A stretch of 64,000 nucleotides of DNA. Origin: Eledone cirrhosa. Taxonomy: Eukaryota. Below the pieces are notes generated by a model. The model was not told the DNA's origin and did not search any database. It worked only from the letters and a program-made list of their open reading frames with translations. The stretch is taken from NCBI GenBank assembly GCA_964016885.1, contig OZ024740.1, positions 221,898,001 through 221,962,000 of the forward strand, in the 5' to 3' direction. Position 1 is the stretch's first letter. Each line of letters begins with the position of its first letter. Position numbers and translations under genes: made by a program. This document shows, one piece after another, positions 57,355-58,385 of this stretch.

Positions 57355-58385
57355 ATATGAATAAAATGGCGAGCTGTGTGGTTACAATTAAGTATAATGA
57401 AAATAAAAGTTACCGGCGAAAGAGGGCAATATCCATCGCCGGTCGTCTGCTAGGAACCATAGGTATCTCTTCGAGTTAGAGACAAGATACCTCAGCCTAG
57501 GGCGAACAATAACTAAAATAAGTTATTGGGATATAAAAGGGGATTTGACGAGAAAAAAAAACACGTCTTCCCTGTAGCAGTGTGAACGAGAGAAGAGACT
57601 GCTTACAGTGGGTGACGTGGGAGGAAGTGAGCTATCGGAGCGAGGGTGACTATCAGAGAGGGAGTGAGTGAAAGTAAGAGGAAGCGTGAAAGAGATAGTT
57701 ATAGTGGCAGGCTAGCCGAGAGCAGAACTCTAACGCGAAGAAATACCTATGATTGCTAGCAGACAACTGACGATAGATATTGCCCTCTTTCGCCCGTAAC
57801 TTTTATTTTCATTATACTTAAATGCAACCACACAGCTCGCCATTTTATTCATATAAGCTTCTTTCTCCGCTGTAACCAGTCTCTTTTCTCTCTCCTTGTT
57901 GCTATCCTCTCTCTCCCCCTTCTCTCTCCTCTCCCTCTTACTTTCGCTCATCCCCTCTGCTAGTCACCTTCTCTCGGCTAGCCTGCCACTATAACAATCT
58001 CTTTCTCGCTTCCTCTTACTTTCACTCCGTTCCTCTCTGCTAGTCACTCTCTCTCCGCTAGCTCGCTTCCTCCCTAGTCCGCCATTGTAAGCAGTCTTTT
58101 CTCTCGCTAACACGGCTACAGTGAAGACGTCAAACTCACCAGTTCTTACGTTCGAAATGAGTTGTTGACTTCATATTTTTCCTATTTTTACTCTATTTAC
58201 GTTGCTTCACCCTTCGTGTTTGTTTACACCCCTCCTCTTTTTCATCCCAATAACTTATTTTAGTTATTGTTCGCCCTAGGCTGAGGTATCTTGTCTCTAA
58301 CGCGAAGAAATACCTATGATTCCTAGCAGACAACTGATGATGGATATTGTCCTCTTTCTCCCGTAACTTTTATTTTCATTATATA
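57355..58385 (+). mobile_element. Non-coding element, 567-nt monomer with inverted 5' copy
   Basis: Direct repeat 57728-57815 / 58295-58382. 57355-57727 is an inverted copy that runs across the repeat junction. TA flanks. Confidence 0.78.
58241..58344 (+). ncRNA. Unassigned conserved structured RNA motif (copy B; mirror copy ~57435-57535)
   Basis: Covariation with the copy at 31961-32064. Confidence 0.6.

Follow-up and report, generated by a model that had tools for sequence, protein, structure and literature searches.

A probable permuted hammerhead with a divided block C in non-coding, Penelope-like repeat elements of Eledone cirrhosa

Two non-coding, retro-like elements in a 64,000-nt stretch of DNA from Eledone cirrhosa (the window, taken from a 3.0-Gb animal assembly) share a compact pseudoknotted RNA motif, which raises the question of what the motif does and to which class of RNA it belongs. 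The copies at 58241-58344(+) (copy B) and 31961-32064(-) (copy A) align without gaps over 104 nt with 24 mismatches, as had been noticed at the outset, and the positions first given for the hairpin, the ctagg/cctag versus ctggt/atcag stem, the invariant ggtat/atacc and both pseudoknots are confirmed. Unit lengths of 567 and 535 nt are reproduced from the repeats at 57728/58295 (89 nt) and 32503/31968 (40 nt), and both elements do end at (TA)n. The original prediction described a conserved pseudoknotted fold in non-coding retro-like elements, which holds, but it overlooked the hammerhead within that fold. Its statement that no proper hammerhead was present is contradicted by CUGAUGA at 58334-58340, GAAA at 58307-58310, a UH site at 58289-58290, and stems I and III. 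The motif was also thought to match no known class, whereas its parts follow the S-G-C order described by Eckert et al. 2023 (PMC10085705), and instead of a candidate new ribozyme class it is a permutation variant of the hammerhead. Nor is the remainder of the two elements much less similar, as had been supposed: units of families A and B are homologous, with 65% global identity against 75% for the motif.

Read from 5' to 3', copy B presents the cleavage site (58290), then GAAA (58307) and finally CUGANGA (58334), an order that is no circular permutation of types I-III. All core elements are nonetheless present, namely C3 U4 G5 A6 N7 G8 A9, G12 A13 A14, the A15.1-U16.1 pair, and H17 (Table 1). 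What the original prediction called the loop-to-3' pseudoknot corresponds to stem I, with CUGAUGA starting right after it, and the invariant ggtat/atacc forms stem III with its A15.1-U16.1 pair. Downstream of CUGANGA the sequence pairs back to the 5' end of the motif (P1), the hairpin P2 comes next, and a single base separates P4 from each of P3 and stem I. This hammerhead core, ordered site-GAAA-CUGANGA, with its stem II strand moved 5' and a predicted K-turn, is quite likely self-cleaving and probably does a hammerhead's job in what would be a retrozyme, a Penelope-like element that is non-autonomous. Tandem transcripts of this element would be cut after H17 (58290 in copy B) to release unit-length RNAs. 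The loop of the stem III hairpin would pair with both of its flanks (stem I and stem II), P4 would take the role of the SGC helix 'I', and the K-turn would fold P4 back, bracing stems I and II, with P1 and P2 stacked as a side arm at the A9/10.1 step.

Table 1. Coordinates of the motif copies, their parts, the elements that carry them and other fragments in the window.
Feature	Position	Strand	Details
Permuted hammerhead motif, copy B (family B)	58243..58346	+	complete core; predicted cut 58290/58291
Closing helix P1	58243-58247 with 58342-58346	+	inserted arm with P2 between A9 and stem II
Hairpin P2	58248-58269	+	
Displaced stem II (P3) strand	58271..58274	+	5' of cleavage site; partner 58302-58305
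Bracing helix P4	58276..58326	+	58276-58281 with 58321-58326
Predicted K-turn joining P4 to stem III	58282-58284 with 58315-58320	+	
Block S	58285..58296	+	stem III strand 58285-58289 (ending U16.1), H17 58290, stem I strand 58291-58296
Block G	58302..58314	+	stem II (P3) strand 58302-58305, 11.1 at 58306
Block G, continued	58307-58314	+	G12-A13-A14 58307-58309, stem III strand 58310-58314
Split block C	58328..58340	+	stem I strand 58328-58333, CUGAUGA 58334-58340, no stem II strand after
Copy A (family A)	31959..32062	-	complete core; H17 at 32015, CUGAUGA 31971-31965
Third copy, in inverted piece	57428..57537	-	GAAA and CUGANGA both mutated
Partial copy	57728..57781	+	begins 4 nt past predicted cleavage site
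Element B	57728..58383	+	567-nt non-coding unit plus 89-nt repeat (partial tandem), (TA)n end
Inverted piece of element B	57354..57725	-	5'-truncated, internally deleted, long (TA)n end
Element A	31929..32503	-	535-nt non-coding unit plus 40-nt repeat, (TA)n end
Other mobile-element fragments	75-800(-), 7057-9051(+), 9872-10612(+), 53974-54690(+)		

Two further copies of the motif lie within the window, one at 57428-57537(-) with a broken core and a partial one at 57696-57781(+), the former being predicted inactive from the mutations in its GAAA and CUGANGA words. Copy A, with mismatches of its own in both stem I and stem II, is probably impaired as well. Its C-C mismatch is present and its second pseudoknot is broken, as originally reported, but both are private mutations, other copies of family A pairing at these places.

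The helices were assessed over all 202 full-length copies from loci L001-L218, in which the paired cells amount to 932/996 for P1, 1350/1406 for P2, 754/795 for P3, 1108/1193 for P4, 952/998 for stem III, and 1155/1200 for stem I. Among 34 copies hand-picked from 148 full-length ones, double changes occur in 13 of 33 pairs, including five of the six pairs of P4; none of 500 shuffles scored as high, though the rows are related and such shuffle controls overstate the significance of the test. On trees of 85 representatives, each built without the helix under test, Watson-Crick pair-type changes number nine in P4, five each in P2 and stem I, two in P1, one in P3, and none in stem III. Covariation in a larger alignment had been set beforehand as a test of the structure, and in the present alignment four helices do covary (stem I, P4, P2, and P1). 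Within the main families covariation is all but absent from P3 and stem III, which counts against the main reading. What supports these two is, on the aligned sequences, conservation together with the older family G, the stem III sequence varying only between distant families. Family G has different sequences in stem I, stem III, P3, P4, and P1, lacks P2, and keeps the 23-nt spacing from GAAA to CUGANGA. Its P3 is only 72% paired, another point against the main reading, and its loci give no match to the strict descriptor, 11 of 43 passing a looser filter.

It is barely credible that the covariation reflects no more than the shared ancestry of a few repeat families and that the core-like words are there by chance. 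The relatedness of the rows and the overstated shuffle controls speak for such an explanation, as do several pairs that change only once on the tree, but it is already largely refuted by family G, which retains the spacing and all helices other than P2 with different stems, and by published Naiad ends. The strict topology descriptor finds no match in 3.37 Mb of shuffled loci, and of 292 pattern-selected microbial and viral loci a single one passes the filter on stems I and III, apparently by chance. Exact patterns match the genome 230, 407, 509, 13, and 923 times as against 0 or 1 time for reversed-pattern controls. No homologs were found in IMG/VR (21 + 31 pattern matches), in JGI metagenomes (120 of about 130 matches), or in GTDB (120 of about 340), model R1 having been applied to 100 of the first 141 microbial and viral loci.

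The closing stem of the original prediction pairs well overall, although its register involves the core bases G8 and A9 and leaves 45 mismatches among 198 copies at the variable position. Over the 202 copies this register (1102/1180 cells) and one shifted 3' (932/996) are equally well paired, and only the 3'-shifted register covaries cleanly at the variable position (GC 128, AT 60). The register that buries G8 and A9 is also the predicted minimum-energy fold of both window copies and may represent an off state. All 13 core positions are kept in 177 of the 202 full-length copies, the free positions being N7 (T in 170, C in 30, A in two) and H17 (C in 183, A in 12, T in four, G in two). Across 242 copies from a wider range of families every base occurs at N7, and H17 is C in 169, A in 63, T in five, and G in five. 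Outside N7 and H17 the core is almost invariant. These two are the variable sites of a hammerhead core, and G at H17 in only two of 202 copies completes a pattern expected of selection on catalysis. Positions 10.1 and 11.1, on the other hand, pair in only 60 of 198 copies of the main families (C-A in 134, U-A in 59), which counts against a cleaving ribozyme. In family G the G after A9 faces C11.1 or U in all 20 copies (C-G 16, U-G 4), and 11.1 is A, U, or C across families.

A descendant of a hammerhead that no longer cuts, kept as a recognition signal for a Penelope-like protein or for a K-turn-binding protein of the host, is to be weighed against the cleaving motif, and is unlikely. Its case draws on the unpaired 10.1-11.1 step of the main families, on the alternative closing register that hides G8 and A9, on a P2 loop and linkers as strongly conserved as the core, and on copies that run through the predicted site into the next unit with no pile-up of 5' ends there. 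Against this, the core varies exactly where selection on catalysis would let it vary, and a circular or multimeric template would be expected to give read-through, according to the accessible text of PMC7229834. Among 83 unselected copies of family A, 5' ends do not cluster at the predicted site, 11 falling within 36 nt of it, which is the background rate, by an extension method that is noisy in the pyrimidine-rich part. The lack of a pile-up fits a circular or multimeric template, yet lends cleavage no support.

The closest published relatives of the motif are the type-SGC ribozymes (HRIMA-1 and variants), which are treated here as described in the accessible part of Eckert et al. 2023 (PMC10085705). 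Five SGC RNAs were shown there to cleave and four helices to be required, and SGC motifs were reported only from metatranscriptomes and from no genome of a known organism. The present motif resembles them in its S-G-C order, its two core pseudoknots, its short linker between stem I and stem II, and a helix followed on its 3' side by block C's stem I strand. Most families also carry one extra base after CUGANGA, and published SGC tolerate one at the A9/10.1 step. P4 joins the far ends of stems I and II as the corresponding SGC helix does, an equivalence of topology rather than of structure. The differences concern the division of block C, which in published SGC has the stem II strand after CUGANGA and which Eckert et al. 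treat as indivisible, insertions of more than 1-2 nt not being known to them. In the motif block C is split, its stem II strand standing upstream of block S, and the type-SGC criterion of an intact block C (a stem II strand no more than 1-2 nt after CUGANGA, and C before GAAA) does not describe it. Further differences are the covalent linkage of the bracing helix to both stem III strands via the predicted K-turn, the extra P1/P2 arm, 11.1 as A, U, or C, and residence in the chromosomal DNA of an animal. By this comparison the motif would work like type-SGC while missing one of its defining features, and is best regarded as a new permutation and not as a new class. It would then be the first ribozyme of non-circular permutation to be assigned to the chromosomes of an organism of known kind.

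The published SGC descriptor, as given in the accessible text of PMC10085705, calls for CGAAA, CUGAUGA(U)G, and stem II, and thus cannot match the split form. The Rfam scan called for at the outset likewise gave no relevant match to the motif: in the window at E up to 1 nothing relevant appeared among 164 matches, the 150 listed being microsatellite look-alikes, and at gathering score seven loci gave no hammerhead match. With the three-block rule for hammerhead permutations broken, current descriptors and Rfam would miss a family of thousands of copies.

The tandem arrangement of the units brings up a further possibility, that cleavage takes place only as a dimer or in trans, tandem units swapping strands into a three-way hammerhead and the double pseudoknot of a single unit being inactive. 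Although covariation is blind to whether helices form in cis or between identical units, and dimeric hammerheads occur in Penelope-like elements, this is distinctly improbable, P3, P4, and stem I being joined by one-base linkers like those of the SGC ribozymes. Single SGC transcripts of 79-81 nt cleave, and all four of their helices are needed (PMC10085705, accessible part), which argues for the single-unit fold.

Between stem III and P4 a K-turn is predicted. It has the layout of the standard k-turn, as far as this is set out in the accessible text of PMC5061560, with a 3-nt bulge after a helix ended by G-C and then G-A and A-G pairs. In about 200 copies 1n-1b is A-G in 191 and 2n-2b is G-A in 77 and U-A in 111; unlike the standard k-turn, family A mostly has U at 2n and is without the second G-A pair. 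Most families have U-U at 3b/3n; two families instead carry C at 3b or G at 3n, changes that are both named in the accessible part of PMC4382518 as permitting ion-induced folding. A point left open by Eckert et al. is that helix I and stem III are joined yet lie far apart in the crystal structure (PMC10085705, accessible part), and a K-turn would address this gap. A natural hammerhead braced by a K-turn would be a candidate for a protein-regulated ribozyme.

First-look searches gave 1718 candidates related to copy B, 1190 to copy A, and 1371 to family G. These sets and the exact-pattern sets overlap and each is a lower bound, and several thousand copies are estimated for the genome. A family with 923 exact pattern matches (family H, L453-L482) is near-identical among the matches listed and has units of 620-624 nt, no extra base past CUGANGA, and C at 11.1; it is probably the youngest family. 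A subfamily of family B with a 458-nt unit (L019-L023, L026-L028) stands in near-identical arrangement on several contigs, and one of its copies carries a compensatory change in stem III. An apparent extra family among the pattern matches was dropped as a chance match inside a Penelope-like RT frame.

The elements that carry the motif are units of about 460-625 nt (spacings mostly 451-624 nt) that are non-coding, the longest ATG ORF of seven units being 54-84 aa. They stand as partial tandems and inverted 5'-truncated pieces, and homology among loci stops within about one unit. What had been taken for terminal direct repeats is the overlap of a head-to-tail partial tandem and no LTR. (TA)4+ lies within 200 nt of 215 of 257 array ends, compared with 740 of 2000 random windows of the same loci. 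Partial tandems, inverted 5'-truncated pieces, and (TA)n together point to the anatomy of Penelope-like insertions as described in the accessible text of PMC8557442. The elements resemble metazoan non-LTR retrozymes (Cervera and de la Pena 2020, PMC7229834; Li et al. 2026, bioRxiv 10.64898/2026.07.22.740005; both in their accessible parts) in that low-GC units without coding capacity stand in tandem, are dispersed over the genome, have a single hammerhead core each, and probably depend on Penelope-like elements. They differ from those retrozymes, which carry type I hammerheads and were found by type I descriptors, in having 460-625-nt units with a permuted core that is not type I.

The 5' end of element A comes directly after the 3' UTR of a Penelope-like element, a direct join that is found at one of 230 ends, that of window copy A alone. 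The window holds two copies of this 3' UTR, 32510-33385(-) and 23745-24620(+), from a Penelope-like element with a C-terminal GIY-YIG and 87% identical to L450, one of them abutting the 5' end of element A with no (TA)n in between, like a product of template switching. A search of 50 loci for the motif in the own 3' end of a GIY-YIG element found none. The GIY-YIG domain is C-terminal in all frames read across these loci, some of them 844-1096 aa long; the Penelope-like open frames of L433, L434, and L435 (938, 844, and 1096 aa, with C-terminal GIY-YIG) are candidates for the active mobiliser. L112-L115, L439, L442, L448, L451, and L452 were rejected as autonomous partners, being separate insertions beside or inside Penelope-like ORFs.

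The motif may be derived from the 3' end of Naiad elements, and the family that mobilises it now may be another Penelope-like one that is still intact. According to the accessible text of Craig et al. 2021 (PMC8557442), Naiads target (TA)n and are without canonical hammerheads, some being tagged 'HHR_core' or 'HHR_half_core' and fitting no descriptor. The elements studied here share with Naiads the (TA)n targets, partial tandems, and inverted 5'-truncated copies, but are without an ORF, and the Naiad remnants of the genome are decayed. Two patterns derived from Naiads had no match in the genome and a third led to a decayed Naiad-like remnant without the motif; its absence from three decayed Naiad-like loci of the genome is a point against the main reading. 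The last 260-420 nt of 53 of the 54 consensus sequences in File S5 of PMC8557442 were read by eye, and the split-block topology was seen in ten of the 53 (Obim, Ovul, Esco, Amil, Aacu, Anas, 3_Chem, 2_Movir, Plae, and, weakly, with a 2-bp stem I, Bfor). Three coral and two octopus entries are near-duplicates, which leaves about seven lineages. Naiad_Obim and Naiad_Ovul show P1, P2, and the K-turn pattern, the last seen by eye in these two octopus entries only among the published ends, and an 8-nt P2 loop identical to that of copy B. These octopus ends are the nearest match, which would suggest a cephalopod host. The Ptep Naiad has S-G-C order with an ill-defined stem II, and six nematode Naiads (1-3_Nbra, Hcon, Hpol, and Asuum) appear, by eye, to end in hammerheads of the order C-S-G with a flanking helix, an order of which two sequences, both metagenomic, were known to Eckert et al. 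2023 (PMC10085705, accessible part). The remaining 36 entries show no such motif in the part viewed by eye.

With moderate confidence, it may be proposed that much of the Naiad clade, across animal phyla, normally uses non-circularly permuted hammerheads (CSG in nematodes; the split-block SGC form in corals, jellyfish, an acanthocephalan, and cephalopods), and that in the present genome a K-turn-braced split form, switchable by a host protein of the L7Ae family, drives several active circular-RNA retrozyme families. If this were true, permuted Naiad hammerheads would explain the reported absence of canonical ones. The motif itself makes two published open points testable, this absence and the connection in SGC between the far ends of stem III and of the stem I-II helix. 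A literature search, mostly of papers outside subscription, returned no permuted hammerhead placed in an animal genome or in Naiads, and the accessible parts of PMC13725137 and PMC10162972 contain nothing on a permuted split form. The 3' ends of bivalve, hemichordate, and Clytia Naiads share a conserved motif of 60-80 nt with a 7-bp closing helix and an inner hairpin, a candidate ribozyme at the place where other Naiads have theirs. Twister-like conserved words occur in the 3' ends of Naiad-1_Movir and Naiad-4_Chem and suggest that ribozymes have been swapped among Naiads.

Words of the ordinary order, CUGANGA...GAAA, are found in the window at 59400(-), 29793(+), 17176(+), and 12885(+) and further at 5595(-), 31650(+), 30944(-), and 39517(+), several of them in repeated pairs; they are likely minimal type I hammerheads of other Penelope-like elements. 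Also in the window are remains of other mobile elements, namely of a Penelope-like RT, of the RT and integrase of an LTR retrotransposon, and of a Tc1-like transposase.
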